From a virus, in IMG/VR virus record IMGVR_UViG_3300046665_000384, positions 1 through 64,000 of that record: a DNA stretch of 64,000 nt. One strand, 5' to 3'. Below the pieces are notes generated by a model that worked only from the letters and a program-made list of their open reading frames with translations, made no database searches and was not told the origin of the DNA. Shown here piece by piece: positions 1,252 to 63,878 of this stretch. Each line of letters opens with the position of its first letter. Position 1 is the stretch's first letter. Made by a program: the position numbers and the translations under genes.

Positions 1252-3197
1252 TGCAGGTTCTCCGTTCCAACGCGCGCGATGAGCCGTTTCTTGGCGTTGC
1301 CGACATGATTGTCATTGAAGTACCGCCATGCCGAGGTCAGGTCATTTCCTTCCAAGTTGGCCACTGCGATCAGGGCGCGAACTTTATCAAGGTCGCTGTG
1401 CAAGATCATCGAGTCCGGGATGACTTTGCGCCAGCCGCCAGTGCTGGCACGGTCCGCGTTTTCCGTCGACAGCGCATCGACGATCAGGAAGCCCTTCGCG
1501 TTGCGCTTGGTCGCCCAGTTGTGGAACACGCCGGAGAAGACCTTGTAGCGGCCGTGCCCACCAACGTATTGCGCGACGCCCTTGCGGCTCTTGGTCAGCA
1601 CGTACCTCGTCAACATCTCGTAGAACTCGCCATCCCGGTCGAGCGTGTTGGGCCAGTCGTCGTTCACGAGCGCGGCCTGCGACGAGAGGAATTCGATGGC
1701 GCGCTCGTACTGAGCCTCCACCTCTTGCCGCTCGTCCAGCATTTGTCCGATGACTCCCTTGTGCATGTTCAGCTTCGCGTGCATGGCCGGCGTGACGGGC
1801 ATGCTCAGGTAGCCGGTGATGAGGGCGAACATTTCCGGGTCTTGCGCCGCGAAGATGGCGGCGTCCTTGGGATTGGCGAGGTATTGCACGCCCATCGAGA
1901 ACACTTCGGTGACGCCATCCTTGTAGACCTTGCCGACATAGGCGTCGGTAAAGTGGTCCTTGTAGGCGATTTCGCTCTTGTCGTAGCCCTTGTTCTTCGT
2001 CAGATCGCGCAGGCGGTACACGCCTTCGCCCTCGCGGCGCTTGAGCAGGAAGCCGTTCGATGCGCCCTTGGCAATCGGATCGTTCTCCAGATGGTGCGCC
2101 AGCTCGTGAAAGAGCACCGTCTTGTTGAAGCGCGAGCCCAGATTGATGACCTTTTCGCCGAGACGGTCGGTGATGCCTACCGCGTTCGCACGCTTGCCGC
2201 CATCAATGCCGATCCGGATCGCAGACGCCTTGCCGCCAGTGAGGCGGTAGAACTCGGCCATATCTCGCACCACGTCCTCGGGCTTGTAGCCCAGCTTCTT
2301 GAGCTTGGCCTTGGCGTTGGCGTCGATAATCTGCTCGGCGGCCCATGCCTGTGCCTGCTCGGGCGTGATGGGCGACGCCGCGACCACCGCGTCGATGATC
2401 TTCTGGCCGTTCTCCTCGAACAGCGCGCGATACGTGCTGGCGCGGGTCTCGTTGAACTGGGCGCTTGTTGCCTTGACGCGCTCCCATGCTTCGGTCTGCG
2501 CGCCGTGGGTGTCGTTGTACAGGTCGTCCAGCTGGCGCGCCAGCACCTCGCGCGCGTCGCGCAGCGGGGCAATCTCGGCCTCGTCGCGGCCATCGCGTAC
2601 CGCGTCGCGGATTTCTTCCGTGGCGGCCGCCACTCGGTCGCTCAGCTCGCGAATGGCCTTCGTGCGCTCGGCGCTCAGCTGGTCGTAGTGCGCACGCGCA
2701 GCGGCGTATTCCGGGTCGTCGGCCATCTTCTGCGCCAGCAGCTCCTGCGAATCGGTCAGCGCCTTTTCGAGCGCGGCCTGCTCGATGCCATGCTTGACGC
2801 CGCGCGCGGCGATGTTGCCGAACACGGCCAGCTTCGCCTCGGCGTCGCGCGGATCGTACTTGCCGGCGGCGACGAATTCCCACGCCGCCTCGGAAACCGT
2901 GTTGTTGCCGATCAGGTGCGCCAGATCGCCCACGGTCTGCGCCTCGAACGCCGCCAGCTCGGGCGGCAGTATCCGGATGCCGTTGGCGACGTAATCGAAC
3001 AGCACCTTGGCCGAGCGCTCCTTGTCCGCCAGCGCGAAGTCCAGCGGCGCGCCCGCCGACGCGACCCCGATCATGGCGAGGATTTCGCGCAGTCGGTTGA
3101 GGTCGTCGAAGAACCCGGACGATCCCTCGTCCAGATTCTTCAGCAGGGCCGCGCCTTCGCCGATGATGGCAAAGAATTCATCCTGCCCCATCTTCAT
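1248..3197 (-). CDS. ddrB: DdrB-like protein with zincin (HExxH) metallopeptidase domain
   Basis: VLFHELAHHLE...YVGKVY...TEVFSMG resembles P1 DdrB as recalled; lies directly downstream of the darA-like gene. Confidence 0.65.
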   Translation of the reverse strand: MKMGQDEFFAIIGEGAALLKNLDEGSSGFFDDLNRLREILAMIGVASAGAPLDFALADKERSAKVLFDYVANGIRILPPELAAFEAQTVGDLAHLIGNNTVSEAAWEFVAAGKYDPRDAEAKLAVFGNIAARGVKHGIEQAALEKALTDSQELLAQKMADDPEYAAARAHYDQLSAERTKAIRELSDRVAAATEEIRDAVRDGRDEAEIAPLRDAREVLARQLDDLYNDTHGAQTEAWERVKATSAQFNETRASTYRALFEENGQKIIDAVVAASPITPEQAQAWAAEQIIDANAKAKLKKLGYKPEDVVRDMAEFYRLTGGKASAIRIGIDGGKRANAVGITDRLGEKVINLGSRFNKTVLFHELAHHLENDPIAKGASNGFLLKRREGEGVYRLRDLTKNKGYDKSEIAYKDHFTDAYVGKVYKDGVTEVFSMGVQYLANPKDAAIFAAQDPEMFALITGYLSMPVTPAMHAKLNMHKGVIGQMLDERQEVEAQYERAIEFLSSQAALVNDDWPNTLDRDGEFYEMLTRYVLTKSRKGVAQYVGGHGRYKVFSGVFHNWATKRNAKGFLIVDALSTENADRASTGGWRKVIPDSMILHSDLDKVRALIAVANLEGNDLTSAWRYFNDNHVGNAKKRLIARVGTENLQ

Positions 3198-5854
3198 CAG
3201 GCCACCTTCTTTTGAAATTCAGCGATGAAGAAATTCTTGGCCGCGACCTTGGCGCGCTGGATCATGTCGAGGTACGCGCCTTCCGGATCGGTGTACTTCT
3301 GCGCCAGCGCGGCGAGACGGTCCGTCACGGCCTTATCGTAGAAATCGACCTTGCCCTCCGCCGCCAGCGCGAGGAAGTCACCATCGGCCGCCTCTTGGTC
3401 TTCTGCCGCCTGTTTCGCCGCTGCCTCGGCCTGCGCTGCTTCCTCGGCTTCGCGCGCCGCCTGCGCCGCAGCTTCAGCCTGCCGGGCCTCCTCGGCTTCG
3501 CGCTCGGCCTGCGCGGCCGCCTCCGCCGCTTTTGCGGCCTCTTCCTGCGCGCGGGCCTCGGCATCCGGGTCCGCCTGCGGTTCCGGCTCCGGATCGGCGG
3601 CCGGGACGGTCGGCATGCCCTTGGCGGCCAGCTCCTTCAGCTCGCCATAGGTGCGGCCGTTGAGCTTGGTGATGAAGCCGCTGATGGCGCTACCGCGCTC
3701 GTCCTCGTCCATCTCCATGTACGCCGGCAGGTAACGCGGGCTGATCGTGTTGAGCGCCATCGCCATCTGCGTTGCCTCGTCGGCCACGAATACCACGCTG
3801 GCGTCCAGCTTCAGGTCTTCGCTCAGGTAGGCTTCGGCCATGTCGTCAGCCGGGTCGATGGCGGCGTAGTAGCGGCCCGACAGGAATTCGCCGTTGGACA
3901 TGGTTTCCGTGCCCAGCAGCGGGCGCGGGGCGTTCAGGATGACCCAGTTCGCACCCACGGCAACGCCTGGCATCGGGTTGGTCGAGGTGACGACGGCCTT
4001 GATGCCGTCCACGTTCAGCTGTGGGACTGCTGCGCGGGCATCTTCCAAGCGCTTGAGCGCGGCCTCGATGTCGTCCGGGTGATTCTGGTCAATGGCGTCC
4101 ACCAGATCAGCGCCCCACTTGCGGTCGGCGTTGCGCACGTCGAGGAAGCCGGCGACCTTGCGCTGATCCGCCTCGGAAAGCTGCTCGATGCGAGCGCGCA
4201 ATTCATCATGGCGGCGCTGGAGGTCGGCTTGCTCATCCTCGGTCAGCAGCGTGCGGGCCGGGGGCGGGTCGTTCTCCCGCTCCACGCGCGCCACCTCGAT
4301 CTGGCGGGTCAGGTCGGCGAGCGTCGCTTCCTTGGTTTCCAGCTCGGTTTTCAGGTCGGCGATCACCTGCAACTTGGCGGCGCGCGTCGTGTTGGCCTTG
4401 GCGAAGCGCTCGCTGTTCTTCTCGGCCAGCTTCATGATGCGCGCAGCAACGGTACGCACGTCCAGATCGCGTCCGCGCTCCGGGGCGACGGCGACCGTGA
4501 TGTCTTTCTTGTTCAGCATCCACTTCCACGACACCAGCTCGTCGCCCTGCGCGATCTTCTTCGGCGTCACGTCCGGATTGTGGAAGAAGATGGAGACGGT
4601 CTGGCCATCCGTCAGCTCATAGACCACGGCCACGTTCGTGCTGCCGCGCTGCGTGAAGGGCTCGGACACCTGCATCGCCGCGACCTTGACGGTACCGCTG
4701 GCGCGGTCCAGCACCTTTTGCAACAGCGTCATGCGCTGCTGGAGGCGTGCGAACGGCAGCACCAGCGCATCGAACGTCAGCACGCCGTCCGCGTCAGCGA
4801 TGATGTCCTGTACGGTCAGGGAGTCGAACAGCAGGCCGTCCGCGCTGTCGTGCTTGCGCAGGGCGTACAGCACCTGCTCCAGATTCGCATGCAGGGGCAT
4901 GTTCGTGCTGTCCCACAGTACCTTTTCCATTTCGTTTTTTCCTTCAGCCGGGAATTGATTTTGCTCGATGGGCAGCGCCTTGTTCCCGTTGGCGATCCAC
5001 CATTTAAGTTGCTTCAGGGTGCAGGGCACGCAGTCGCGCATGCCCTGCCAGCCCTCCTCATAGCCGCTCAAGTAGCCCGCCTCAGCTTCGCTCTGGTTCG
5101 CGAAGCCGAACATGATCTTGTGCTCATCGAATACGCCGTCGATGAACTGGTTCACGACATAGGCCAGCTCGGCATTGAGCGGTGCAGGCCCTATTGTGCA
5201 GTCCAGTTCATCGCCGTCATTGCCGAGTGTTCCTTCGATGTAGCCGTAGGCGAACGACATCACGTGACTGCCGCGAGTACCGTCCGCCGCCTTCCAGTGG
5301 CGCACGGTGCCGCGCGGTGACTCGATTGCGATGCGCAGGCCGTACAGGGCGTATCGATCCTTCGGGTAGTCGCCGGACTCTGCCTGCTCCTCCGTGATGG
5401 GCTTCAGGCCCGGAACGATCAACGGATCGTCCGCGCTCCAAACCGGCATGCCATATGAATCGATTGGATTTGAAACGGCCGGCGCAATCGGAATGGCCGG
5501 GGTATCAAGCGCGGCCGTGACGATGCTCGAGACTCCATCAGGCCCATAAGCCTGAAGGCGCACCGTGTAGCTCCTTTCGGGGAGCTTCCCAACGATGTCG
5601 TAGCTCAGGGCGTTGCCAACGTCGATCCAGTATGGCGTCCCCATGTCGCAGCTGATGGAGTAGCCGCTGACGTTGCCCGTGGCCGCCTGCCACGCCGCAT
5701 GCGCCCCGAAAGGGGTGATGGACGACAGGGATACGCCCCCGACAAACACGGGGGGATTGGGCACGACTGGGGCCGGCTGCTGACTCTGCGCAGGAGGATT
5801 GGTAGGGGCCAGATAGGTGAGGCCATTGATGGTGGCCGGGTGCAAGTAGATCAT
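3197..5854 (-). CDS. darA: DarA-like polyvalent protein: FN3 + inorganic-pyrophosphatase-like (InPase) + DarA N-terminal domain + coiled coil
   Basis: LTDGQTVSIFFHNPD...WMLNKKDITVAVAPE...IMKLAEKNSERF (DarA_N); IAIESPRG...YGYIEGTLGNDGDELD...FDEHKIMFGF (InPase). Confidence 0.8.
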   Translation of the reverse strand: MIYLHPATINGLTYLAPTNPPAQSQQPAPVVPNPPVFVGGVSLSSITPFGAHAAWQAATGNVSGYSISCDMGTPYWIDVGNALSYDIVGKLPERSYTVRLQAYGPDGVSSIVTAALDTPAIPIAPAVSNPIDSYGMPVWSADDPLIVPGLKPITEEQAESGDYPKDRYALYGLRIAIESPRGTVRHWKAADGTRGSHVMSFAYGYIEGTLGNDGDELDCTIGPAPLNAELAYVVNQFIDGVFDEHKIMFGFANQSEAEAGYLSGYEEGWQGMRDCVPCTLKQLKWWIANGNKALPIEQNQFPAEGKNEMEKVLWDSTNMPLHANLEQVLYALRKHDSADGLLFDSLTVQDIIADADGVLTFDALVLPFARLQQRMTLLQKVLDRASGTVKVAAMQVSEPFTQRGSTNVAVVYELTDGQTVSIFFHNPDVTPKKIAQGDELVSWKWMLNKKDITVAVAPERGRDLDVRTVAARIMKLAEKNSERFAKANTTRAAKLQVIADLKTELETKEATLADLTRQIEVARVERENDPPPARTLLTEDEQADLQRRHDELRARIEQLSEADQRKVAGFLDVRNADRKWGADLVDAIDQNHPDDIEAALKRLEDARAAVPQLNVDGIKAVVTSTNPMPGVAVGANWVILNAPRPLLGTETMSNGEFLSGRYYAAIDPADDMAEAYLSEDLKLDASVVFVADEATQMAMALNTISPRYLPAYMEMDEDERGSAISGFITKLNGRTYGELKELAAKGMPTVPAADPEPEPQADPDAEARAQEEAAKAAEAAAQAEREAEEARQAEAAAQAAREAEEAAQAEAAAKQAAEDQEAADGDFLALAAEGKVDFYDKAVTDRLAALAQKYTDPEGAYLDMIQRAKVAAKNFFIAEFQKKVA

Positions 5855-5857
5855 GGC

Positions 5858-8332
5858 TTACCCCACAGTAGCGGTCACGTCGAAGTTGCGGCCGTCCGCG
5901 AGCTGCACGGACACCCCGCAATTCGCGCCGACTGCCAACGTTGATTGCATCGTGAACGTCAGAACGCCACTGGCATTTGTCGTCTGCGCCGCCGATTTGT
6001 ACTGCGGGGCAGCACGCAGGTCTGGCGTAGGCTGATCGAATGCCGCCACCTTAATGCCGGCAAGGTTCGCCAGCGGCCCAGACGCATCACCCAATGTCAG
6101 CGTGACGGTGCGCGCAGTCGTGGTTCCAGTCGATGCCAGCGCAGAGCGAATAGCATTGGCGGCAAGCGGCGCAATGTGCGTAATGTTCTCGACCCCGTAC
6201 GGATGCAACGAATCACTTGCATTGGCAGTCGTGAACCAACCGGCAGTGTTTACGTAGGTGACACGGCTCGGCGCTGTGCAGGCCGCAATCGCGTTTTGCA
6301 GCTGAGTTGCGTGCACCGTACCGTTGCCGGATGCCACCCCGTCAAACGGACGCAGGACGACAATTTTTGTTGTCCCCGGCGTTGCGGCCAGCAGCCCGTT
6401 TAATACGGTTGTCGCGGCGGCCGTAATGTCGCCGGGCTCGTTCGTGCCTTCCATCAGCACGATGAAATCCGGGGCTGGGGTAAATGAACGGGCCACTCCA
6501 GAGTAAAGGTAGTTGTAGCTGGACGTGAGGCCCGGCACGCCACCCGATCCGGACTTGCTGAAGCCAGTTGCGCCGAAACCAACGTTCCCGATTTCTGCGC
6601 CGAGAATACGCGCGACTTCCAGAGACCAGCCTTGACCTGCATCGTTCCGGTCGGTGTCGTACGTGGCGGTCATGTTGACCGTACGGACGCCTTCCGTAAT
6701 GCTGTCACCGTAGAAGATGGCCTTCAGCGGCAACGATGGTGGCGCGCTGATCGTCTTGCCGGCATCGAGAACGATGCCAGTAAGCTTTACGGCGGTCGAC
6801 TGGGTGCTCCAACGCGCCTGCGTCTCGGTAGTGCTCTTTACCAGAACTTCCAGAAGGTGCCCGCCCTTGTTTGCGTAGTCGGCGGTGTCGGACGGAATCG
6901 TGATCGCGACTGAGGCTGCAATGGGGGTGCTGATCCACGGCCCGAAACGGTCCACCCGGTACGAAATTTGAGGCAACGGCGAAGCGATGCCGGTCATGTC
7001 GAAATTGAGCGTACAGGACGTGCCGCCAAAGACCGCCTTGAAATAGGCCCCGGCGTTGATCGTTTTGGCACTGGAGGCTTGAATGTCCCAGTTGTATGGC
7101 GAGAACAGGACGCTACCCGTGCCATTCGTCAGTACGTTGTTCGCGGCTGCAAGCGTACTGACAGTCGTGGAGATTGCTGCTGCTCGATTACCTGCGGCAT
7201 CGTATGCGCGCACCTGCGGCGTGTAGGCGGTATTCGCAGCCAACCCGCTGACAGCCGTGGTCAGGACATTGCCAACATCGGTCCAGCTCGTGCCGCCATT
7301 GGTACTGTATTCGTAACCAGCGACAGCAACGTTATCCGATGCGGCCGACCATGTGAGCGTGAAGCCGGAAGTGGTGGCAGCACTGGCTGCAAGCGAGCCA
7401 TTCATCGTAGGTGCCGCCCCATCCGAAGAGGTGGCGGTAGTCACGTCAAGAGACAGCGGAGCCGACTTGTTCAGGGCAGCGTCGTAGGCGCGCACCTGCG
7501 TGTGGTACAGCGTGTTCTGTGCAAGTCCGGTGATCGCCTTGGTCAGAACGTTGCCGGCATCGGTCCACGAGGTTCCGTTGTTGGTGCTGTACTCATACCC
7601 GGTGACCGCCACGTTGTCGGATGCAGCAGTCCACGACAGGGTAAATCCGGAAGCGGTGATGCTACTGGACGAAAGCGAGCCGACAGCCATCGTTGGCGCA
7701 ACGGTATCGCTTGAGGTAGCGCCATCGTCAACACTCACATCATCAATGCCGGTCGTCGCGGAACCTGCGCCAGAGCGGTACAGACCAACATAACCACTTG
7801 CGTACGTCGCATCGGTGAAGGTTGCCGTAGGCGTGGAAGGACGAGTACCACCTGTCGTGCTGTTCCAGATGCGCAGCTCGTGCGTGCTACCACTGGAAAT
7901 GCACTCGACTTCCATCACGTCGCCAGCGGCGAAGGTAGCGGTGCTCGCACCAGCCGTGTAAAGGCTTGTGAAACTCCCGCTTGCACGCCTGAAAAACTTT
8001 GGCGTGACTTTATTGGCATTGATAGAGAAATCCAGAATCCACAGGTAGCCGTTGAGATACCCGGAGTCCATGCGGATATGTGGCGAATAGTGCCCGGCAT
8101 TACTGGTGGGGCTTGGGACTTTCTGGCTGTACCTGAATTTTGTATACGATTGCGCTGCTATGCCCGTATAGAGAGCAGTATGACCATCAACGGTAGTCGA
8201 TGACCCGAAACTTTGCGTGCCAGAAATGGGATTATTGGCTCCAACAACCCACGTACCAGTTTTTGCTGTCCATCCAGATGCAATCTGGCCAGAGGTTTCG
8301 CTATCAAAATTACTTAAGTAGAGAATTGTCAT
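5858..8332 (-). CDS. Lectin-like + 2x FN3 + SGNH/GDSL hydrolase protein, probably virion-associated
   Basis: FYGDSITEG, GTN and DSLHP SGNH blocks; two FN3 repeats (LSWTAASDNVAVTGYEY...VRAYDAA); visibly lower GC than the flanks. Confidence 0.8.
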   Translation of the reverse strand: MTILYLSNFDSETSGQIASGWTAKTGTWVVGANNPISGTQSFGSSTTVDGHTALYTGIAAQSYTKFRYSQKVPSPTSNAGHYSPHIRMDSGYLNGYLWILDFSINANKVTPKFFRRASGSFTSLYTAGASTATFAAGDVMEVECISSGSTHELRIWNSTTGGTRPSTPTATFTDATYASGYVGLYRSGAGSATTGIDDVSVDDGATSSDTVAPTMAVGSLSSSSITASGFTLSWTAASDNVAVTGYEYSTNNGTSWTDAGNVLTKAITGLAQNTLYHTQVRAYDAALNKSAPLSLDVTTATSSDGAAPTMNGSLAASAATTSGFTLTWSAASDNVAVAGYEYSTNGGTSWTDVGNVLTTAVSGLAANTAYTPQVRAYDAAGNRAAAISTTVSTLAAANNVLTNGTGSVLFSPYNWDIQASSAKTINAGAYFKAVFGGTSCTLNFDMTGIASPLPQISYRVDRFGPWISTPIAASVAITIPSDTADYANKGGHLLEVLVKSTTETQARWSTQSTAVKLTGIVLDAGKTISAPPSLPLKAIFYGDSITEGVRTVNMTATYDTDRNDAGQGWSLEVARILGAEIGNVGFGATGFSKSGSGGVPGLTSSYNYLYSGVARSFTPAPDFIVLMEGTNEPGDITAAATTVLNGLLAATPGTTKIVVLRPFDGVASGNGTVHATQLQNAIAACTAPSRVTYVNTAGWFTTANASDSLHPYGVENITHIAPLAANAIRSALASTGTTTARTVTLTLGDASGPLANLAGIKVAAFDQPTPDLRAAPQYKSAAQTTNASGVLTFTMQSTLAVGANCGVSVQLADGRNFDVTATVG

Positions 8333-39429: not shown

Positions 39430-39457
39430 ATTTGACATAAGATAGATTATGCGAATC
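39430..39457 (-). other. dif-like XerC/XerD recombination site GATTCGCATAA-TCTATC-TTATGTCAAAT
   Basis: 11-6-11 layout; XerD arm 10/11 and XerC arm 8/11 identical to E. coli dif. Confidence 0.85.
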
Positions 39458-39473
39458 TAAGTCATTGATTTTA
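39458..39473 (-). promoter_or_regulatory. IHF consensus site (AATCAATGACTTA)
   Basis: Matches WATCAANNNNTTR with an AT-rich flank; directly adjoins the XerC arm. Confidence 0.65.
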
Positions 39474-39624
39474 AAGGACTTTTAATCGACAATACATTTT
39501 CTATTGTCGAGTCCGGTTGTTGCGCGAATCCGGCCCGAGAACGTCCCGGAAAACGGTCCCAGAGTGCCTAGCGGTGATCTGCCCAGCTTCGCGCCCGGTA
39601 TGGTCGCCACACACTACGGGGATG

Positions 39625-41194: not shown

Positions 41195-41374
41195 ATGGCT
41201 ACCCCAGAATCACAACTGATTGCCGCGCTAGAGCGCATCCGCGCCGGCCGCGTTGCACCGAACATGACTGACCGCCTGAGCGACACCGAAATGGCGCGCA
41301 TTGCACACGAGGCCCTGACCGCTGCCGGCGTCGGGGCGAAGATCACCCCAGAAGCCCTGATGATCCTGAAGTGA
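41195..41374 (+). CDS. Small hypothetical protein
   Basis: GGAG RBS. Confidence 0.6.
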   Translation: MATPESQLIAALERIRAGRVAPNMTDRLSDTEMARIAHEALTAAGVGAKITPEALMILK

Positions 41375-41934
41375 TCAATATGAAGTGCGCGATCCTTTTC
41401 CCGCATCACTGCTTGGGCGATCCGCGCGACGCGGAGGGATGCCGCCTGCCGAACAACCACGCCGGGCCGCATGAATTCGTCGCCGCCGATGGCCGCGTGA
41501 TGCAGTGGGAAACCGATTTGGAATGCTCCTGCGAACACTGCATGGAAGGCTACGGCGACTACTGCACCACGTACTGGCCGAAAGTGCGCGTGTTCGCGTT
41601 CTGCCGCTCGATGCCGGGCGAGCCCTCGATGCGCACGCAGCTGGAGGCCATTCAGGCGGCCATCGGTACCGACGTCGACGCCGACTGCATCATTGAAGAC
41701 GGCTCGCCGGCCCTCTCGCCGCCATCCAAGCGCCCGGCGCTGCGCCAGCTGCTGGAGACCGCCGCGCGCGGGGATCGCGTCATCGTCGCGGCGTCCCGGC
41801 TGCTGGCCCTGACCCGCGCGGAGGTGCGCGCCGTCATCAAGCAATTCGACCGCGCAGGCGTTCAGGTGTCGTCGCTGGACGATGGCGACCTGAACGGCCT
41901 ACGCCCCAATGGAGATTTTCAAGGAACCCTATGA
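41371..41934 (+). CDS. Cys/His-rich domain fused to a degenerate serine-recombinase catalytic domain
   Basis: VFAFCRS...RPALRQLLE...GDRVIV...VQVSSL; lacks RVS and LDRLGR. Confidence 0.6.
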   Translation: MINMKCAILFPHHCLGDPRDAEGCRLPNNHAGPHEFVAADGRVMQWETDLECSCEHCMEGYGDYCTTYWPKVRVFAFCRSMPGEPSMRTQLEAIQAAIGTDVDADCIIEDGSPALSPPSKRPALRQLLETAARGDRVIVAASRLLALTRAEVRAVIKQFDRAGVQVSSLDDGDLNGLRPNGDFQGTL

Positions 41935-42970: not shown

Positions 42971-43182
42971 GCATCGTCTATTCCGCCGATGTGTTCTGCG
43001 ACGGCGAATGCGCCGGCCTCTGGACGCACGGGGCCACCGGATCGGCGGCCCCGACGAAGACCGAAGCACGCGCGAACGCCGCCCACTCGGGCTATGTCCA
43101 CCACAAAGGCAAGGACTACTGCCCGGCATGCTGGAAAGCGCTCGCCGCCAAACAAAACGAACCCGAGGAGGCCCACCAGTGA
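42967..43182 (+). CDS. Small zinc-finger protein
   Basis: CDGEC...DYCPAC. Confidence 0.65.
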
Positions 43183-43772
43183 GCCGTGTTTTTGCCTACT
43201 GCCGCGTGTCGACGACGGACCAGACCACCGACAACCAGCGCGCGGAAATCGTCACCGCTGGGTACGCCATCGAGCCCCAGCGCGTCATCACGGAGACGAT
43301 CAGCGGCTCCGTTGCGGCGAAGTCGCGCCCCGGCTTCAAAAAGCTGCTGGACCGGCTGGAGCGCGACGACGTGCTGATCGTGACGAAGCTGGACCGCCTC
43401 GGGCGCAACGCGTTCGACGTGCGCGGGACAGTGGAACACCTCGCCAGCATCGGCGTGCGCGTGCACTGCCTCGCGCTGGGCGGCATCGACCTCACCAGTG
43501 CGGCCGGCAGGATGACCATGCAAGTGATCGCCGCCGTCGCCGAGTTCGAGCGCGACCTGCTCATCGAGCGCACGAATGCTGGCCTACGCACGGCGGTCGC
43601 GAAAGGAAAGCGCCTCGGCAGGCCACCCGCCCTGAACGAAGAAGACCGGGAACAGGCCCTCGCGCTGCTGGCGGTTGGCGTGCCCGTGTCCGAGGTGGCG
43701 CGCGACCTCGGCACCTCCCGCGCGACCATCATCCGCGTGCGCGACGCCGCACAGGAAGCAGCCCCGGCGTGA
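43179..43772 (+). CDS. Small serine recombinase (resolvase/invertase, Pin-like) with C-terminal HTH
   Basis: YCRVSTTDQ...RPG...[13 protein letters not shown]...[12 protein letters not shown]...GRP; GTG start with GAGGAGG RBS. Confidence 0.95.
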
Positions 43773-52148: not shown

Positions 52149-53314
52149 GCGTCCGGCCATGCGATGTATGCCATCTTGCCCATGAACTCCCACAGCTGGC
52201 GGGCATGGTCGGCCGGGATGACACGCTGCTGGCCGTCGACGGTGACGAGCAGCGAATTGTCCGACAGGAGGCCGGCAACGAACTTGTCGGCGGCGGCCTT
52301 GTCGGCGATGGCGGCGGCTGCTTTTTCCGGGGATGATCGCAAACGCCCGTTTTCGTACACCCCCGGCCGGCTGAAGTCGAGACTGTCAATTCCGGCCTCC
52401 GGTTCCGCTACGACGGGCGCGGCAGCGGTAGGGGCCGCTTCCGCAGGTGCCAGCTCTGGCACTTTCTCCGCGACCGGGATGCAGTCGCCGCACAGCAGCT
52501 TGCGCTCGGCGGCGTCGCGCGGGTCATCGGCGTGCGGTCCGCAGTTCATCGTGCATTGCTTCGTCGCCGGGTCGAACGCGGCCAGTTCGGCGGGGTCGGC
52601 GCGCGGGAAGCTCGGCTGCGTCGGTACTAGTTCGCGCACGGTCACGACCGGCTCGGGCAGATCGACGGCGGCCGGCGCTTTCTCCTGCGGACGCACCAGC
52701 ACCCAGTCACTGCCCACGCGTGCAATCTCGTTGCGCTTGATCGCACCGCGCAGGTAGCTGATCGGGTAGTGGTGCTTCGGCAGCCCCATCGCAACGGACA
52801 GGACAGCCGACGACACCGGGCCGCTGCTTTCGCGCAGGCACTGCATACCCAGCTCCGTACGGCTCGGGCCATCCGCGCGCACCACGCGCTGCAACGGAAC
52901 GCTTTCCTTGCGCGTCACGGGCACGTCGATTTCCTGCGGCTTTTCCGGCTGGGCAGGCACAGGCGCGGCGGCGGTTGCTGCCGGGGCCACATCGCGTGCT
53001 GGTGCTGGTTCTGGCGAGGCGGCCGGCACGACTACCTTCCGTACTGCCGGCGGCAGCGCGCGTACCACACGGGCCGGCAGCGACTCGGGCGCGGGCGTCT
53101 GCACCTCGGCTTTGGGCTGCGCGTCCCGGTAGCGGAACGACAGCACCTCGCGGCCGTTCGGAGCGATGATCGGCTCCTCCACGATCACGAGGGCGCGAAT
53201 CTCGTCCGCGATCAGCGGGCGCACGCGCTCAAGATCGATGTCCAGCTTGTCCGAAATCTCGACGGTGCGGATGTTCGGGTTCGCGCGGATCAGGTCTAGG
53301 ATTTGTTGCTTCAT
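52130..53314 (-). CDS. Multi-wHTH, Pro/Ala-rich protein
   Basis: N-terminal ILDLIRANPNIRTVEISDKL; AGGAG RBS. Confidence 0.65.
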   Translation of the reverse strand: MKQQILDLIRANPNIRTVEISDKLDIDLERVRPLIADEIRALVIVEEPIIAPNGREVLSFRYRDAQPKAEVQTPAPESLPARVVRALPPAVRKVVVPAASPEPAPARDVAPAATAAAPVPAQPEKPQEIDVPVTRKESVPLQRVVRADGPSRTELGMQCLRESSGPVSSAVLSVAMGLPKHHYPISYLRGAIKRNEIARVGSDWVLVRPQEKAPAAVDLPEPVVTVRELVPTQPSFPRADPAELAAFDPATKQCTMNCGPHADDPRDAAERKLLCGDCIPVAEKVPELAPAEAAPTAAAPVVAEPEAGIDSLDFSRPGVYENGRLRSSPEKAAAAIADKAAADKFVAGLLSDNSLLVTVDGQQRVIPADHARQLWEFMGKMAYIAWPDAWASLT

Positions 53315-54159
53315 GGCGACTCCTGTTCGTTTGTCTCGGCGTCGTCGTCGGCGCGCAGCCGGGCCAACGCCTCCTTTGCAAATGCCACCTGCGCGGGCGT
53401 GACCGGCTCGCCGGCAGCATGCCGTTCGAGGATCGTGCGCGCGCGCTTGATCGCCAGTTCACGTGACGGGGCGCGGTCGGCGAGGTCACGCATGGCGGAC
53501 ATCGCACTGGCCTTTGCCTCGGCCGATGTGACAAAGGCACCTTCGGCGTTACGGGCTGGAGCGGCGAGCTGGGGCTGATCCAATACTGGCACGCTCGGGC
53601 ACTCCCCCGACAAGCGCTTGTCCAATAGCCGTTTCCAGCGCTCGGCGGCCTGCCCGTAGCTGGCCTGCCGCAGCTCGAACCGGCCGAAGTCCATGGCCGC
53701 CCAGTACACGGCCGGGACCGGCCAGCTGTCCTCTCCAGTGCGGCGCTTGCGCAGCTCCCGCACGGCGTAGTTGAAGGCATCCTCGTAGTCCAGCTCGGGC
53801 TTGCACAGTGCGACGAACTGCCCCTCCGTTGGCGGCCACGTCGGGAATTCGGTGCGGCACCGCTCGATGCCCTCCAGCGCCATCTGGAACGTGATGCCGC
53901 TGTTGATGAGGGCGCTCGTCCACGCCTTTTTCCAGTCCGCGATCACATCCGGGCTCGTAAAGTGCGAACTCCACTTGTGCATGTACATCGAGGCGAATCG
54001 TGCATAGAGACGGTCGATGGCCGACAGCATCCGGCGGACTTCACGGAAGCCGCCCATGCCATCGGGCTCCTGCCCGATCACCTCACGCGGGGCGTTCCAC
54101 GAATTGAGCGTCGATGGTGTAGGGGTCGACTGCTGGGTAAGCTGGTGCTGCGGGTGCAT
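53311..54159 (-). CDS. Lambda P-like replication protein (helicase-loader position)
   Basis: WKKAW...GIT...GIERCR...WPPTEGQFVALC...W..PAVYWAA. Confidence 0.75.
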   Translation of the reverse strand: MHPQHQLTQQSTPTPSTLNSWNAPREVIGQEPDGMGGFREVRRMLSAIDRLYARFASMYMHKWSSHFTSPDVIADWKKAWTSALINSGITFQMALEGIERCRTEFPTWPPTEGQFVALCKPELDYEDAFNYAVRELRKRRTGEDSWPVPAVYWAAMDFGRFELRQASYGQAAERWKRLLDKRLSGECPSVPVLDQPQLAAPARNAEGAFVTSAEAKASAMSAMRDLADRAPSRELAIKRARTILERHAAGEPVTPAQVAFAKEALARLRADDDAETNEQESP

Positions 54160-57308: not shown

Positions 57309-57550
57309 GTCGATCCCTATAGAATTTATGTTGCCGGTGCGAAAACCCGCGTCCGATTATAAACATCTCGATAGGCGACGGGCAATACAGAATATTTTTT
57401 TTTATTACATTAAGGAAAATTAATAGACTCTCCTTTATTTCCAGTAACAGATCGTGTATAAATAGCGACATATCAGGTTCTTTATACAAGGTTAAAGAAC
57501 AACTAAACGTAGTTATGAGTTGCCAAAGCGCAACAAATCAAGGGGATCTA

Positions 57551-58207
57551 ATGAATCGAGTAGGTGAGCGCGTTCTTACAGTACGTAAGGAACGGGGGAT
57601 GAACCAAACAGAGTTGGCAACCCTCGCCGGCCTCACGCAGCCGACAATCTCGGCGCTGGAGCGCGGCGGCTCGACGACCAGCGGCAAGCTGGCATCGATA
57701 GCGGATGCCCTGAAGGTCAGTGCACTTTGGCTGGAGACGGGCATGGGCGAGCGCGACCTGCCGACCGTGGCGGACCCGAACGATGCGCAGGTGCATCTGG
57801 TCCCGCTGCTGGACTGTCGCGGCAGCTGCGGCAATGGCCGTGAATACTATGGCGACCCGGAGAATGCTCCCATTGCAGTGCCTGACCGCGTGCTCAAGCG
57901 CTACCACGTCCGACCGGAAAACTTGGTTGGCCTCTACGCTGACGGCGATTCGATGAACAGCTTCATCGTGCACGGCGATATGCTGTTCTTCGACACCACC
58001 GCGTCTGACCTGAAGGACGGCGGGATTTACCTGCTGGACACTCCGGACGGCCTGCGCGTGAAACGCGTGCACCGCCGCGCGGATGGCCGCGTCAGCCTGC
58101 GCAGCGACAACCCGGACAAGACCCGCTACCCGGACGAGGAGTACAGCGCCGAGGCCGCCGCTTTGCTCACGATCCGGGGCCGCTTCGTATTCCGCATGGG
58201 CGGATAA
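57551..58207 (+). CDS. cI: CI/LexA-family repressor (XRE HTH + S24 peptidase)
   Basis: GMNQTELATLAGLTQPTISALERG; SCGNG putative cleavage site, GDSM Ser, RVKR Lys. Confidence 0.9.
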   Translation: MNRVGERVLTVRKERGMNQTELATLAGLTQPTISALERGGSTTSGKLASIADALKVSALWLETGMGERDLPTVADPNDAQVHLVPLLDCRGSCGNGREYYGDPENAPIAVPDRVLKRYHVRPENLVGLYADGDSMNSFIVHGDMLFFDTTASDLKDGGIYLLDTPDGLRVKRVHRRADGRVSLRSDNPDKTRYPDEEYSAEAAALLTIRGRFVFRMGG

Positions 58208-58230: not shown

Positions 58231-58255
58231 AAACCTGCTTCGGCAGGTTTTTTTT
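58231..58255 (+). terminator. Intrinsic terminator
   Basis: AACCTGC-TTCG-GCAGGTT-T tract. Confidence 0.85.
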
Positions 58256-58382: not shown

Positions 58383-58432
58383 AAAAAAATATAGAAGTAC
58401 CTATTGCACATCAATATTTCCATCTCTATACT
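58383..58432 (+). promoter_or_regulatory. pL-like promoter TTGCAC-N17-TATACT with ATAG-N6-CTAT operator
   Basis: Twin of 27211-27260; drives the recombination operon. Confidence 0.75.
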
Positions 58433-58894: not shown

Positions 58895-60205
58895 ATGGGT
58901 GACAATTCGCCAGCCGCATTGGCTCAACTCGCCGCCACGCAAGATGCTGCGCTGGTAACGATGGGGTTCGGCAACCTCAAGTCGTTTGAATTCACGTATC
59001 GCACCGCGACGATGTTCTCGCAGTCCACGATGGTCCCGGTGGACTATCAGGCGCAGACCCTGAAGGGCTACGGCCAGAACGCGAACTGGGTCCAGAACCC
59101 GGCCGCCATCTCGAACTGCATGATCGCGCTGGACATGGCGCACCGCATGAACATGCACCCGCTGCTGGTCATGCAAAACCTGCACGTCATCGAGGGCCGG
59201 CCGAGCTGGTCGAGCCCGTTCATCATCGCCGTCATCAACAGCTGCGGAGAATTCTCCAAGCTGCGCTTCGATCTGCAATGGTTCGACGGCGAGGTCGATG
59301 TCGAATACACCGTCTACGAATGGCAGCGCCCGGTCGGCGGCGACCGCGAGCGCACCGCAGTCAAGAAAACGGCGCGCATCCGCAACGCGAAGTGCATTGC
59401 GTGGGCCATTGAAAAAGAAACCGGCGAGCGGGTCGAGTCCGCACCGATCACGCTCGAAATGGCCGTGAAAGAAGGCTGGTACACGAAGAACGGCAGCAAG
59501 TGGCCGACCATGCCCGAGACGATGCTGCGCTACCGCTCGGCCGCGAACTTTGGCAAGGTCTACGTCCCTGAGCTGTTGATGGGCCTCCCCTCGGTCGAGG
59601 AGACGAAGGATGTGATCGACGTGGAGCGCCAGCCGGACGGCACCTACGCGGTGCCGCCGGCAGCGTCAGCCCCGGCCCCGGAGGCCGAGCCGGTGATGCC
59701 GCGCCCGCCGCGCGCTCGTGCTGCTGCGCCAGCTGCGGAGCCGGCCGCGCCGGCAGCTGCTGCGCCGGAACCTGCCCCCGCCGCTGCTGCCGCGCCGGAA
59801 GCGGCAGCGCCCACGCCGGCCGTCATTGAGGTGGCCACGGCCGAGGCCGTAACTGGCGAAGACCCGCCCTCCGATCTGTTCGCCGGCATGGACGGCAGCG
59901 CCGAACCGGCGCAGGCCGAGCAGCCCGCAGCGGAAGCCCCGGCCCCGGAAAAGGTCACGACGCCAGCCGTGACGCCTGAACCAGCCGTCACCGAGGCCGC
60001 CGTCGACAAGAAGAAGTCCAAGCGTAATCCGCTGTCGACGGCAAAGATCAAGTTCGTCAACGACCAGCTGGCCAAGGGGGAAAACGGCCTGACGCTGGCC
60101 CGGTTCGAGGCCGCCTACGGCATCAAGCCCGAGGGGCTGAGCGATGTCCAGTTCAAGAACGTTCTGGCGTGGCTGAAAGACCCGTCCATCGAAGCGGAGA
60201 AGTGA
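58895..60205 (+). CDS. RecT/Red-beta-like single-strand annealing protein
   Basis: NCMIALDMAHRM...MQNLHVIEGRPSW...MA..EGW..KNGSKW.TMPETMLRYRSA. Confidence 0.75.
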   Translation: MGDNSPAALAQLAATQDAALVTMGFGNLKSFEFTYRTATMFSQSTMVPVDYQAQTLKGYGQNANWVQNPAAISNCMIALDMAHRMNMHPLLVMQNLHVIEGRPSWSSPFIIAVINSCGEFSKLRFDLQWFDGEVDVEYTVYEWQRPVGGDRERTAVKKTARIRNAKCIAWAIEKETGERVESAPITLEMAVKEGWYTKNGSKWPTMPETMLRYRSAANFGKVYVPELLMGLPSVEETKDVIDVERQPDGTYAVPPAASAPAPEAEPVMPRPPRARAAAPAAEPAAPAAAAPEPAPAAAAAPEAAAPTPAVIEVATAEAVTGEDPPSDLFAGMDGSAEPAQAEQPAAEAPAPEKVTTPAVTPEPAVTEAAVDKKKSKRNPLSTAKIKFVNDQLAKGENGLTLARFEAAYGIKPEGLSDVQFKNVLAWLKDPSIEAEK

Positions 60206-60783
60206 TGCTTACGTTTGACGAAGCCAAGCACGAGTACCGCTACGACGGCGTAGTGATTCCGGGTGTGACGACGATCCTCAAGCCGCTGATCGACTACTCG
60301 CACGTCCCGGCCGACCGGCTCGCCGCCGCATCCCGGCTGGGCACGATGGTCCACAAGACCACGGAGCTATACGACGAGGGCGTGCTCGACGAGGACGATC
60401 TGGACCCGATCCTCGTGCCATATCTGGAAGGCTGGAAGCGGTTCCGCCGCGAGGTGGAATTCGTGCCCGACACCATCGAGCAGCGCCTGTACCACCCGGA
60501 ACTCCGGTACTGCGGCACCTCCGACCGGACGGGTCGCGTGCGGGGCTACAAGTCCGTCGTGGACATCAAAAAAATGATGACGCTCGGCCCGGTCATCGGC
60601 GTTCAGACCGCCGCATACATGGAAGCGCACAACCGGCACGGCGCGGGCATCGAGAAGCGGTACGCACTGGGCCTGCGCCCGGACGGCACGTACAGGCTTC
60701 AGGAATTCACCGACCCGACCGACTTTCCCTGCTTCGTGTCGCTTCTGACAACGTACAACTGGAGATTGAAACATGGCACGTAA
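60205..60783 (+). CDS. PD-(D/E)xK exonuclease
   Basis: FDEAKHEY...GVTTIL...GTMVH...E..LY...YCGTSDR...VVDIK...QTAAY. Confidence 0.85.
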   Translation: MLTFDEAKHEYRYDGVVIPGVTTILKPLIDYSHVPADRLAAASRLGTMVHKTTELYDEGVLDEDDLDPILVPYLEGWKRFRREVEFVPDTIEQRLYHPELRYCGTSDRTGRVRGYKSVVDIKKMMTLGPVIGVQTAAYMEAHNRHGAGIEKRYALGLRPDGTYRLQEFTDPTDFPCFVSLLTTYNWRLKHGT

Positions 60784-61600
60784 AAAGCCTGCCGAGCAGG
60801 CGCAAGATGCCGGCGCGGTCGCGACCCTGCCAGCGAATGCCCCCAAGGGGGCGGACCTGAACGCCGAGGTAGACGAAGCGCTCGATGCACTGGTCGTCGA
60901 GAACATCGACTGTCCGATGATGTACGAACTGGCGGCCGCCGAACTCATCGACCTGCGCGAGATGTATAAACGATTGGAGGAAAAGCGCTTTGCGATCACC
61001 CGCCCGATGGACGCGGCCAAGCAGCTCGTTCTGGACCTGTTCAAGCCCGCGCTGGCTCGCATTGACGCGAGGGTGCAGACCCTGAAGGCCGGCATGCTGG
61101 GCTACGAACAGTCGGAAAAGCGCAAGGCCGCCGCCAAGCAGGCCCTGCTCGACAAGATCGCGCTCGACCAGCGCGCGGCACTCGCCGCCGAGCAGGCGAA
61201 GCAAGCCGAGGAGGCTCGTTTGCAGAGCGAGCGCGCCGCGCAGCTCATGTCGGCCGGCGGTGACAGCACCGCCATCGCCGAGGCGCTTGACCAAGCCGAA
61301 CAGGCTCAGGAAATGGCGTCCGCGCTCCAGCAGACCACGATGGTTGTCAGCGCCGCCACGGCAGCGACCAACGTGCCAACGGTCGCGGGCGTCGTCTCCG
61401 CCGACGTGTGGAAGGCTCGCGTCACCGACATGGCCGCCCTCCTCCGCTTCATCGCCGACCACCCGGAACACCACGAGTGGATCGACCTCAAGATGTCCGG
61501 CCTGCACGAGCTGGCCAAGTCCCAGCGCACGGCCATGCGCATTCCGGGCGTCGAACCGTACGAAGAACAAACCATCGCCGCGCGCCGCCGGGCCGCATAA
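60773..61600 (+). CDS. Coiled-coil protein of the recombination operon
   Basis: [12 protein letters not shown]...LF; ends IPGVEPYEE. Confidence 0.65.
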
Positions 61601-61647: not shown

Positions 61648-62910
61648 ATGTGGATTAATAACGCGCAGGTCTACCGCCTGCCCAAACGCTACGCCCTGAC
61701 CTCTGCCCAGCTGATCGAAGCGCTCACGCCCCAGACGTTTGCCCCCTGCTCCAGCAACGAAGCCGAGCGCGCCGGCTGGGTACCGCCCCGTCCGGGCGGC
61801 GAACTGGTGCACGTCGTCCACGGCCAGATGATCCTCAAGCTGTGCGTGCAGAAAAAAGTCCTGCCGGGCGCGGTCGTGAACAAGGAGCTGAGGGCACGGT
61901 GCGCTCAGCTGGAAGAACAGCAGGGTTTCCCGCCCGGCAAAAAGGCGACCAAGGAACTGAAGGAGCGCGTCACCGACGAGCTGCTGGCGAAGGCGTTCGC
62001 GAAGGACGATTTCACGATGGTGTGGATTGACTGCACCAACGGCTGGCTGGTGATTGACGCGGCCAGCGCCACCAAGGCCGACGCGGTGATCAAGCTGCTG
62101 CTCAAGGCGGTCGACCGGATGCCGCTCGAATCGCTGCGCGTGCAAAAGTCGCCGGTCGCGGTGATGACGGGCTGGCTGGAGTCCGACGAGGCCCCGCATG
62201 GCTTTACCGTGGATCAGGATGTGACGTTGCGCGCAAGCGGGACGAGCGACGCCACGGTGACGTACAAGCGCCACAGCTTGGACCCCGAAGACATGCGCCG
62301 CCACATCGCCAACGGCAAGCAGTGCGTACGCCTCGCCCTGACGTGGAACAGCCGCGTGTCGTTCGTGCTCGACGAATCGCTGGCCGTCAAGCGCATCCAG
62401 CCGCTGGACGTGATCAAGGAAAACACGGCCGTCACCTACAGCGACGACGAGCGTTACGACAACGACATCATGCTCATGACCGGCGAGATGGCCAAGCTGC
62501 TCGATGGCCTCGTGGAAGCGCTGGGCGGGTTCGCCGTCGACGGCGTGGATGTCGGCCAGCAGTCCGCGCTGCCCTCCTCCGCGCACGAGGCCGCGCGCCA
62601 GCTGCACCAGACCGTTGCGCAGGCCGGCGCTACCGCCACCCTGACCTTCGGAAATCGTTCCGTGACGTTTGGCGCGCAGGACGGTGAGAACGAGCAGGAC
62701 GATGACGCCCTGTATGAGCAGGCTGTCGCCGTGGTGCGCGCCAACCAACGCGCATCCATCTCGCTCGTACAGCGCCACCTGCGCATCGGCTACAACCGCG
62801 CCGCGCGCCTGCTGGAAGAGATGGAGCGCAAGGGCGTCGTGAGCCCGATGGAGAGCAACGGCAACCGCACCCTGCTCCAGACCACCAATGACCAATCGGA
62901 GGCCGCATAA
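61648..62910 (+). CDS. rdgC: RdgC fused to a C-terminal FtsK gamma domain
   Basis: RdgC motifs ([28 protein letters not shown]...SFVL); [29 protein letters not shown]...NGNR. Confidence 0.9.
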
Positions 62911-63878
62911 TGACCCCGCCGAAATATGCCTCCCTGAAGGTAGCTGCCGAGAGCAAGATCGAGGGCGTGAAGAAGGAGACCATTTTTCAGGTCGACCCGT
63001 TTATCGTCGAAGTTGAGCCGGGCTTCAATCGCCCCCTCAGCCGTGACCACATCGAATCGATCAAGATGTCGTTGCGTAGCGGCGCGGAACTGGACCCGAT
63101 CTGGGTCCGCGTTCACCGGACCGCCGATACCAGCCGCATCGTCATGGTGGACGGTGAACATCGGCTCTGGGCAGTCCGCGAACTGGTCGAAGATTTCCGT
63201 GCCGGACGGGAAGGCGGGCGCGAAATCCCGCTCATGTCGGCCAAAGAGTTCAAGGGCAGCGACGCCGACCGGATCGCGCACCTGCTGACCAGCGCGCAGG
63301 GCCTGTCCATCGCCCCGCTCGACCTCGGCATCCAGTACAAGCGTCTGCTGAGCCTGCACTGGACTCGCCAGCAGATTGCGGAACGCGTGGGCAAGTCGAT
63401 CACGCACGTCGACGAGTGCATCATGCTGGCTGAGGCGAATACTGACGTGCAGCAGGCTGTGCGTAAGGACGAGGTGTCCGCGTCCCTTGCTGCGGAGATT
63501 CTTCGCGAGCATGGGGACGATGCCGGCAAGGTGATCCAGCAGGAACTGGTGAAGGCCAAGAGCAGTGGCAAGAGCAAGGTTACGCGCGCTGGCATGAAGG
63601 GCCGTGCCATGCCCCGCAAATTAACCGAACGCGTCACGGAATCTTTTGGCGTGTTCGCGGAGCGGATCACCCTGCCGCCATCGCTGCCCGATCTGTCGAA
63701 TCTGCCACCGGAGACCGAGGTAGAGGTGCAGGTCAAAATCCCGGCATCCATGCTGGCGGAGCTGAAGGCGGCGCATGAGGAATTGCTCAAGCACCGTGCG
63801 AAGGCCGCCGCACAGCAGGAACGGAATGAGCCCGCCCCTGAAGCTGGCAATGCCGACGATAACAAGGCCGGCGAGTAA
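62910..63878 (+). CDS. ParB/Srx-like protein with HTH
   Basis: GFNR...MVDGEHRLWA...WTRQQIAERVGKS. Confidence 0.8.
   Translation: MTPPKYASLKVAAESKIEGVKKETIFQVDPFIVEVEPGFNRPLSRDHIESIKMSLRSGAELDPIWVRVHRTADTSRIVMVDGEHRLWAVRELVEDFRAGREGGREIPLMSAKEFKGSDADRIAHLLTSAQGLSIAPLDLGIQYKRLLSLHWTRQQIAERVGKSITHVDECIMLAEANTDVQQAVRKDEVSASLAAEILREHGDDAGKVIQQELVKAKSSGKSKVTRAGMKGRAMPRKLTERVTESFGVFAERITLPPSLPDLSNLPPETEVEVQVKIPASMLAELKAAHEELLKHRAKAAAQQERNEPAPEAGNADDNKAGE

Follow-up and report, generated by a model that had tools for sequence, protein, structure and literature searches.

RdgC forms a dimeric ring around duplex DNA and keeps RecA in check, and in FtsK, the gamma domain serves as the licensing switch for XerCD recombination and as a reader of chromosome polarity. 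Here we describe a viral gene in which the two are joined, an RdgC-FtsK-gamma fusion without the FtsK motor. It lies near the end of a 64,000-nucleotide stretch of DNA (hereafter, the window), which covers the initial 64 kb of a virus record of 92,973 bp (IMGVR_UViG_3300046665_000384; G000) judged complete by CheckV. The same phage carries a dif-like XerC/XerD site, at which the FtsK-orienting polar sequences (KOPS) of the record converge. The two features meet in one lineage of related phages, and the fusion is probably not a private activator of this phage's site.

The activities of gamma that bear on such a protein have been described in detail. In the E. coli XerD-gamma crystal structure, XerD is contacted by Q1288, R1289, R1292, I1293, G1294, and N1296; a 9-residue stretch of gamma is enough for XerD activation, and the same face binds KOPS (PMC5052618). 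When gamma is isolated from the motor, it does activate XerD in E. coli, but it yields catenated products, and FtsK remains necessary for resolving chromosome dimers (PMC3130261). Large plasmids with bare 28-bp Xer sites undergo recombination that depends on FtsK, and the KOPS of P1 are biased from ori to loxP (PMC11724359). The role of gamma-like genes in phages has been stated as unknown (PMC8190038), and no paper joining RdgC, FtsK, and "gamma domain" was found in the literature searched.

Architecture of the fusion protein

In Pfam, the protein (P0001, Table 1) matched RdgC with 349 bits (cut-off 25) over positions 1-297 of the 298-position profile, and FtsK_gamma with 88 bits (cut-off 30.6). 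In NCBIfam, it scored 407.6 bits for the RdgC subfamily NF001463, above the cut-off of 324, and approximately the last 70 positions of the FtsK model NF007615 were the only ones that matched. The FtsK_SpoIIIE motor (AAA+ alpha/beta) was not found in the fusion with Pfam, and the protein is not an FtsK. A Pfam scan at E values up to 0.1 gave only RdgC, FtsK_gamma, and a sub-threshold EAP30 match; DUF3653 was not found. The N-terminus aligns with residue 1 of the RdgC structures and of all relatives, and an AGAGAG stretch lies 5' of the ATG. The alignments with the RdgC structures 2OWL (E 4.5e-54) and 2OWY (E 2.1e-43) cover full-length RdgC (aa 1-297), and the gamma part matched the PDB entries 2VE8, 2J5O, 5DCF, and 2J5P.

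An AlphaFold2 (AF2) model was built on 27 family members. It comprises an RdgC fold (aa 1-295; predicted local distance difference test score, pLDDT, ~90) and a three-helix winged helix (aa 352-410; pLDDT 81-89), with helices at 352-366, 371-378, and 382-394 followed by the wing. The linker is modeled as a disordered segment (300-310), a helix (312-325) and a beta-hairpin (330-341), both of moderate confidence, and a second disordered segment (343-350). As a side observation on the linker, the helix and hairpin (62578-62673, aa 311-342; AAR.LH....GA..TLT.G..SV.FG) are kept in only part of the family in the alignment.

Both domains are present in all 120 best homologues, and the fusion is therefore not an assembly artefact. 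In the databases, such proteins are named simply RdgC. The first-pass annotation of this DNA, made from the letters and their open reading frames, had described a full RdgC, a linker of about 50 residues, and a well-conserved gamma winged helix without a motor. The profile matches and the model agree with this description, with a slightly longer linker, and the conservation of gamma extends to its contact residues, as described below.

Origin and contact residues of the two halves

Many Massilia and Telluria species have a chromosomal, single-domain RdgC that shares 67-70% identity with the RdgC part, and the tail shares 76-81% identity with FtsK gamma from Janthinobacterium, Massilia, Telluria, Collimonas, and Duganella. 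The 22-residue KOPS/XerD face of the tail is identical to that in FtsK of those hosts. Judged by sequence, both halves derive from the host family, Oxalobacteraceae.

The segment QRHLRIGYN (aa 375-383) retains all six residues that contact XerD in E. coli, and aa 375-390 retain the equivalents of Q1288, R1289, R1292, I1293, G1294, N1296, R1300, and E1303. We take N1296, R1300, and E1303 to be KOPS-reading residues of FtsK gamma. Because the 22-residue face is identical, binding of XerD and KOPS by the tail is plausible. The tail should recognise whatever host FtsK gamma recognises, and the fusion could in principle activate XerD.

Two explanations for the gene draw directly on this face. According to the first, the RdgC ring brings gamma to the phage dif-like site, where host XerCD would then act without septal FtsK in dimer resolution, in circularisation after infection, or in integration at host dif. 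The complete set of XerD contacts, on a face equal to that of host FtsK gamma (PMC5052618), and the activity of isolated gamma in E. coli (PMC3130261) speak for it, and a precedent for an XerD activator carried by an element exists in XafT of TLC-phi (PMC6744903). However, gamma without a motor leads to catenanes and cannot support chromosome dimer resolution (PMC3130261), and we regard this explanation as unlikely, also in view of the site and the distribution of the gene described below. According to the second, the tail would act as a decoy that competes with host FtsK for KOPS or XerD and blunts FtsK translocation or Xer recombination during phage development, for example to protect headful-packaging concatemers or to disturb host segregation. 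The identical face makes such competition biochemically plausible, but isolated gamma activates XerD and does not block it (PMC3130261); a decoy, which the first-pass annotation had raised as interference with host dif or KOPS reading, likewise seems improbable to us.

The dif-like site and KOPS polarity

The dif-like site is the sole match in the window, with 1 mismatch, and shuffled sequences gave matches in 0/100 cases, which upholds the first-pass placement of a site at 39430. The dif of Janthinobacterium and Duganella reads TTCGCATAA TTTATA TTATGT(C/A)AAA(T/C), and that of Massilia and Telluria reads NNCGCATAA TCTATA TTATGTTAAAT. The phage site has the same arms as dif of Duganella and Janthinobacterium. 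Three relatives of 85-91 kb (G003, G004, and G005) are syntenic with this phage around the fusion; none has an integrase, and two have direct terminal repeats. The central region TCTATC is common to this phage, G004, and G005, and it departs from both host types at the base beside the XerD arm. By inference, TCTATC would favour phage-by-phage over phage-by-chromosome exchange. For an activator acting on this site, the same base, compared with TCTATA or TTTATA in the hosts, would disfavour XerD-first exchange with host dif.

The site and approximately 110 bp of its XerC-side flank (window 39458-39570; L091, L092, L093) are kept in all four phages. The flank contains a palindrome (CTCGACAATA...TATTGTCGAG) 45-75 bp from the XerC arm and the A/T-rich stretch TTTAAAATCAA, and this flank may serve the dif-like site as a regulatory or accessory element. 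A small serine DNA invertase gene and a shorter resolvase-like gene lie near the site (Table 1), and either may act as an alternative system for inversion or for resolving multimers. A tyrosine recombinase (PF00589) was not found in the whole 92,973-bp record, a point in favour of an element-borne activator of host XerCD. The combination of a dif-like attP with the absence of an own integrase, by which integrative mobile elements exploiting Xer (IMEX) are recognised, is found in this phage.

The polarity of GGGNAGGG was examined in a host genome and in the phages. Within 200 kb on either side of dif in Massilia haematophila, it occurs 33 times on the plus and 4 times on the minus strand to the left, and 3 times on the plus and 36 times on the minus strand to the right. 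Among eight motifs of similar composition, it is the most frequent and the most skewed in this genome, and it behaves as the host KOPS. All 14 of the 14 copies in this phage point toward the dif-like site (p 0.010), as do 16/17 in G004 (p 0.0015), 24/25 in G005 (p 0.0001), and 18/20 in G003 (p 0.0028), where the p values come from strand permutation with the dif position fixed beforehand. With a random dif position, p is 0.07-0.22 per genome; the claim of convergence rests on the position fixed beforehand and on the relatives. The 14 copies observed in this phage compare with 7.3 ± 2.7 expected, and in G003, G004, and G005 the motif is approximately two to three times as frequent as the reversed motif. 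The polarity flips, as a divergence, beside the region of the fusion and the ParB- and ParA-like genes, and both the convergence on the site and the divergence recur in the three relatives.

Polarity matters only to a directional motor; therefore, the convergence points to motor-bearing host FtsK as the activator, at the expense of a motor-less fusion. The features of FtsK-dependent Xer sites on large plasmids, namely a 28-bp site, arms of consensus type, and KOPS convergence, are all found here, with the caveats that the XerC arm has a conserved palindrome at a distance of 45-75 bp and that p is 0.14 for this genome alone when both switch points are left free. Our preferred reading is of a chromosome-style site at which multimers of the plasmid prophage are resolved by host XerCD and KOPS-guided host FtsK.

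Distribution of the fusion and of dif-like sites

The co-occurrence of gamma fusions with dif-like sites had been set beforehand as a test of the fusion as an activator. Viral records encoding a relative of the RdgC part numbered 83, and we searched each over its whole length for TTCGCATAA-N6-TTATGTTAAAT, allowing at most 3 mismatches. A dif-like site was found in only G003, G004, and G005, all syntenic with this phage. The fusion is present in 42 viral loci. Outside the 85-93-kb lineage, a dif-like site occurs in 0/22 fusion-bearing records, each at least 90% complete. A tyrosine integrase is present in 21 of the 28 records tested, usually at the record end as in ordinary integrated prophages, and absent in the four 85-93-kb phages. 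The Janthinobacterium and Duganella genomes that hold the fusion, and one unclassified metagenome-assembled genome, have only one chromosomal dif each, on another contig.

A more distant relative is pBVIE05 (CP000621.1), a circular 88,096-bp plasmid of the cultured Burkholderia vietnamiensis G4. Its gene order is the same, with an XRE regulator, a repressor, an annealing protein (ERF), an exonuclease, and RdgC-gamma, and RepB follows a few kb on. The fusion is present, and a site within 3 mismatches was not found. An intergenic Xer-like candidate at ~7616-7641 (minus strand; GTTCGATAA TTGTAT TTATGTCAAAT) lies within the interval of KOPS convergence; it has 5 mismatches, approximately 2 such matches are expected by chance by our own estimate, and it was not counted. 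The KOPS of the plasmid diverge at 37.4-38.2 kb, just before RepB, and converge somewhere in 68.3-11.6 kb, with p 0.08 when both switch points are free, which is near the chance level.

In the reverse direction, a scan with the exact pattern gave more than 118 viral stretches containing a dif-like site, and FtsK gamma (PF09397) was present in 0/50 unrelated viral records with an exact site. The first-pass proposal that the RdgC ring delivers gamma to the dif-like site and frees recombination from septal FtsK was therefore not borne out: the fusion is common without a dif-like site (the 22 near-complete prophages and pBVIE05), the 50 records with a site have no gamma, and the two coincide only in one four-phage lineage, outside which they are independent, while the KOPS convergence points to host FtsK. 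In its favour stands the fusion in all 4 of the 4 phages that have both an RdgC relative and a dif-like site, but these four positives are a single lineage. We conclude that the fusion is probably not a private activator of this phage's site. Its presence in integrative prophages without dif-like sites would fit a host-directed role such as that of a decoy.

The tail itself appears in several contexts. In the RdgC tree, fusion genes fall into several well-supported separate clades, and the 85-93-kb clade and L018/L019 sit among single-domain RdgC genes; our claim is limited to the well-supported separate clades, and the fusion genes L041, L049, L083, and L101 carry a solo label in that tree. 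In a related phage, gamma ends a different 374-aa protein of unassigned family (L078:13756-14880, plus strand), 3.7 kb downstream of a tail-less RdgC. PHROGs contains at least 8 other gamma-bearing phage families, several of them without known function. Gamma therefore behaves as a movable targeting tail that has repeatedly been joined to RdgC or has stayed joined to it. In one Janthinobacterium genome, we also observed gamma inside a 3544-aa open frame (L313; G046:C27:8162-8344, minus strand), apart from FtsK and from the RdgC-gamma prophage gene.

The constant neighbours of the fusion across unrelated phages are an annealing protein and an exonuclease. The Janthinobacterium and Duganella proviruses have a YqaJ-type exonuclease upstream of the fusion (L025, L035) and a distant RecT. 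A decoy leaves unexplained this frequent fusion to a full, conserved RdgC within recombination modules.

The phage replicon and the operon of the fusion

The coordinates of the features are summarised in Table 1.

Table 1. Features of the fusion gene, the dif-like site, and the surrounding phage replicon. Positions are those of the window unless G000, the whole record, is given.
Feature	Position	Strand	Remarks
RdgC-FtsK-gamma fusion gene (P0001)	61648..62910	+	420 aa; ATG 61648, TAA 62908-62910; Pfam, NCBIfam, and PHROG matches
RdgC domain	61648..62529, aa 1-294	+	PF04381, E 2.6e-104
Linker	62530..62697, aa 295-350 (~56 aa)	+	AF2 model
FtsK gamma winged helix, motor absent	62698..62877, aa 351-410	+	PF09397, E 2.8e-25
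dif-like XerC/XerD site	39430..39457	-	GATTCGCATAA TCTATC TTATGTCAAAT
KOPS	19887, 26329, 26961, 32423, 33971, 34344	+	
KOPS	49007, 50743	-	
KOPS	66771-91004	+	past window end
Resolvase-like gene	41371-41934	+	resolvase domain; shorter than invertase gene; 2-4 kb from dif-like site
Serine DNA invertase, small	43008-43772	+	phrog_125, E 2e-60; 2-4 kb from dif-like site
Lambda-P-like replication gene	53311-54159	-	
CI/LexA-type repressor	57515..58207	+	HTH_3 and Peptidase_S24
Terminator-like hairpin	58231-58250		between repressor and recombination operon
Promoter-like site	58405-58432		ahead of recombination operon
RecT-like single-strand annealing protein	58895..60205	+	phrog_561, E 9.6e-64; weak PF03837; in operon of fusion
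Exonuclease	60169..60783	+	phrog_298, E 2.8e-27
Second exonuclease-like gene	60773..61600	+	phrog_10477, E 1.3e-16
ParB-like gene	62910..63878	+	phrog_1033, E 1.8e-50; PF17762
ParA-like gene	64472-65146		past window end
885-aa protein	3197-5854	-	DarA_N and InPase domains (anti-restriction)
2286-aa protein	G000 83544-90404 (L003:544-7404)	-	N6-methylase and SNF2 helicase; anti-restriction
822-aa LPD3 polyvalent protein	G000 90498-92966 (L003:7498-9966)	-	grouped with P1-type anti-restriction set

The ATG of the ParB-like gene overlaps the TAA of the fusion by one base (TAATG), and a GGAGG lies 8 nt upstream. This translational coupling, with a ParA-like gene downstream, would suit a private activator of the phage site. 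The ParB-like gene was considered as proof of partition and found weak, since a ParB-like gene 41-43% identical to it also adjoins the fusion in L018 and L019, and the L018 record has an integrase. The position of the fusion in an early operon with its own promoter-like site, after the repressor terminator, would be consistent with a decoy.

The record contains virion genes for the large terminase, baseplate, and tail fibre. The 2286-aa methylase-helicase presumably resembles P1 DarB. As a raw count, G000 has 5 copies of the E. coli Chi octamer GCTGGTGG on its plus strand and 12 on its minus strand, and this octamer may not be the Chi of the host. A megablast of 39500-64000 against GenBank phages found no close annotated relative, only two short patches of ~80% identity to Burkholderia and Ralstonia phages. 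A close relative was likewise not found in species-representative genomes, where the best RdgC match was 60% identical. The 93-kb integrase-less phage is most likely kept as a plasmid prophage.

Proposed function

The gene belongs to a Red-like recombination operon of the phage, together with the annealing protein and the exonucleases. It encodes a chimera of two host genes, carried by temperate phages and phage-plasmids of Burkholderiales. From what is known of the family, the RdgC body may form a ring dimer on duplex DNA and modulate RecA. The flexibly tethered gamma tail may guide the ring to GGGNAGGG, the guide motif of host FtsK, and/or to XerD-bound DNA. We put it at about even that the fusion is an accessory protein of the recombination module, an RdgC ring aimed by a host-mimicking tail at KOPS DNA and/or XerD.

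The recurrent association with annealing proteins and exonucleases, and the occurrence of the fusion in elements without an own dif-like site, would also be accounted for if the protein cleaned up crossovers. Phage recombination would raise the number of crossovers between circular replicons, RdgC would limit those made by RecA, and gamma would stimulate XerCD at any dif, of the host or of a phage-plasmid, to resolve the remaining dimers. However, this scheme is purely inferential, and motor-less gamma cannot support E. coli chromosome dimer resolution without FtsK (PMC3130261); we consider it very improbable.

Several points weigh against an accessory protein aimed at KOPS or XerD that operates apart from the dif-like site. 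The targeting role of the tail is argued from the identity of the domain. Among the 27 family members, Q375, R376, and N383 are invariant, but R379, the equivalent of the XerD contact R1292, and R387, the equivalent of R1300 in KOPS reading, vary, a pattern that seems to fit neither XerD nor KOPS cleanly. Because the XerD and KOPS contacts overlap (PMC5052618), conservation does not reveal which of the two partners is the important one. If neither switch point is fixed, the convergence in this genome alone has the p of 0.14 given above and is not significant, and the four dif-bearing genomes are related and are not independent replicates. Finally, wherever a phage has both an RdgC relative and a dif-like site (4/4), the fusion lies beside ParB- and ParA-like genes and near the KOPS divergence, and cooperation between fusion and site inside the 85-93-kb lineage is possible.

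A bolder version of the accessory-protein proposal is that phages and phage-plasmids of Burkholderiales have repeatedly tethered host gamma to RdgC, which would give a regulator without a motor that acts in trans on XerD and KOPS reading and links the recombination of the phage to the resolution of dimers by Xer. Next to XafT, and without relation to it, the fusion would form a second class of Xer control factors encoded by mobile elements, and in the 85-93-kb lineage it would act jointly with the own dif-like site of the phage. We think it rather unlikely that this holds in full. In either form, gamma has been captured repeatedly by phages and fused to a RecA-modulating DNA ring, and this suggests that the licensing switch for XerCD recombination is borrowed or manipulated by them. 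Both domains of the fusion are well known, and the dif and KOPS layout of this phage-plasmid lineage is a more solid by-product of the analysis.

Comparison with known systems

Like chromosomal RdgC (E. coli 2OWL and P. aeruginosa 2OWY), the phage protein aligns full-length over RdgC and scores above both curated cut-offs. Unlike chromosomal RdgC, it has a C-terminal extension of ~125 residues that ends in gamma, and its gene is borne by phages and a plasmid in a recombination operon. The tail resembles FtsK gamma (2VE8/2VE9, 2J5O, 2J5P, and the XerD-gamma fusion 5DCF) in its winged helix and in the XerD contacts QRxxRIGYN. In contrast to FtsK, it has neither the alpha/beta motor nor a membrane or septal anchor, and it is tethered to a presumably dimeric ring rather than to a hexameric pump.

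XafT of TLC-phi (DUF3653; PMC6744903, PMC9226527) is likewise encoded by a mobile element and could act on XerD without FtsK. However, the two have no sequence relation, and according to the authors of the XafT studies, XafT is not homologous to FtsK. XafT genes are clustered next to dif, but the RdgC-gamma fusion does not track dif-like sites. In the fusion of small terminase and gamma in the Bacillus phages Sam46 and Sam112, a host-derived gamma is also appended to a DNA-handling protein of a phage; there, the partner is Terminase_2, gamma is N-terminal, and the host phylum and the module are different (PMC8190038).

At the level of the replicon, pBVIE05 shares with this phage the layout of repressor, annealing protein, exonuclease, and RdgC-gamma, and differs in having no convincing dif-like site. 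This phage resembles P1 as a replicon of ~90 kb without an integrase, with DarA-like and presumably DarB-like genes, ParA- and ParB-like genes, and KOPS polarity toward the resolution site. Unlike P1, this phage has a host-type dif-like site in place of Cre/loxP. A tailed-phage lineage of P1 size thus appears to have swapped Cre/loxP for host-type dif and KOPS polarity, which extends the chromosome-like dimer-resolution layout of large plasmids to phage-plasmids of ~90 kb.

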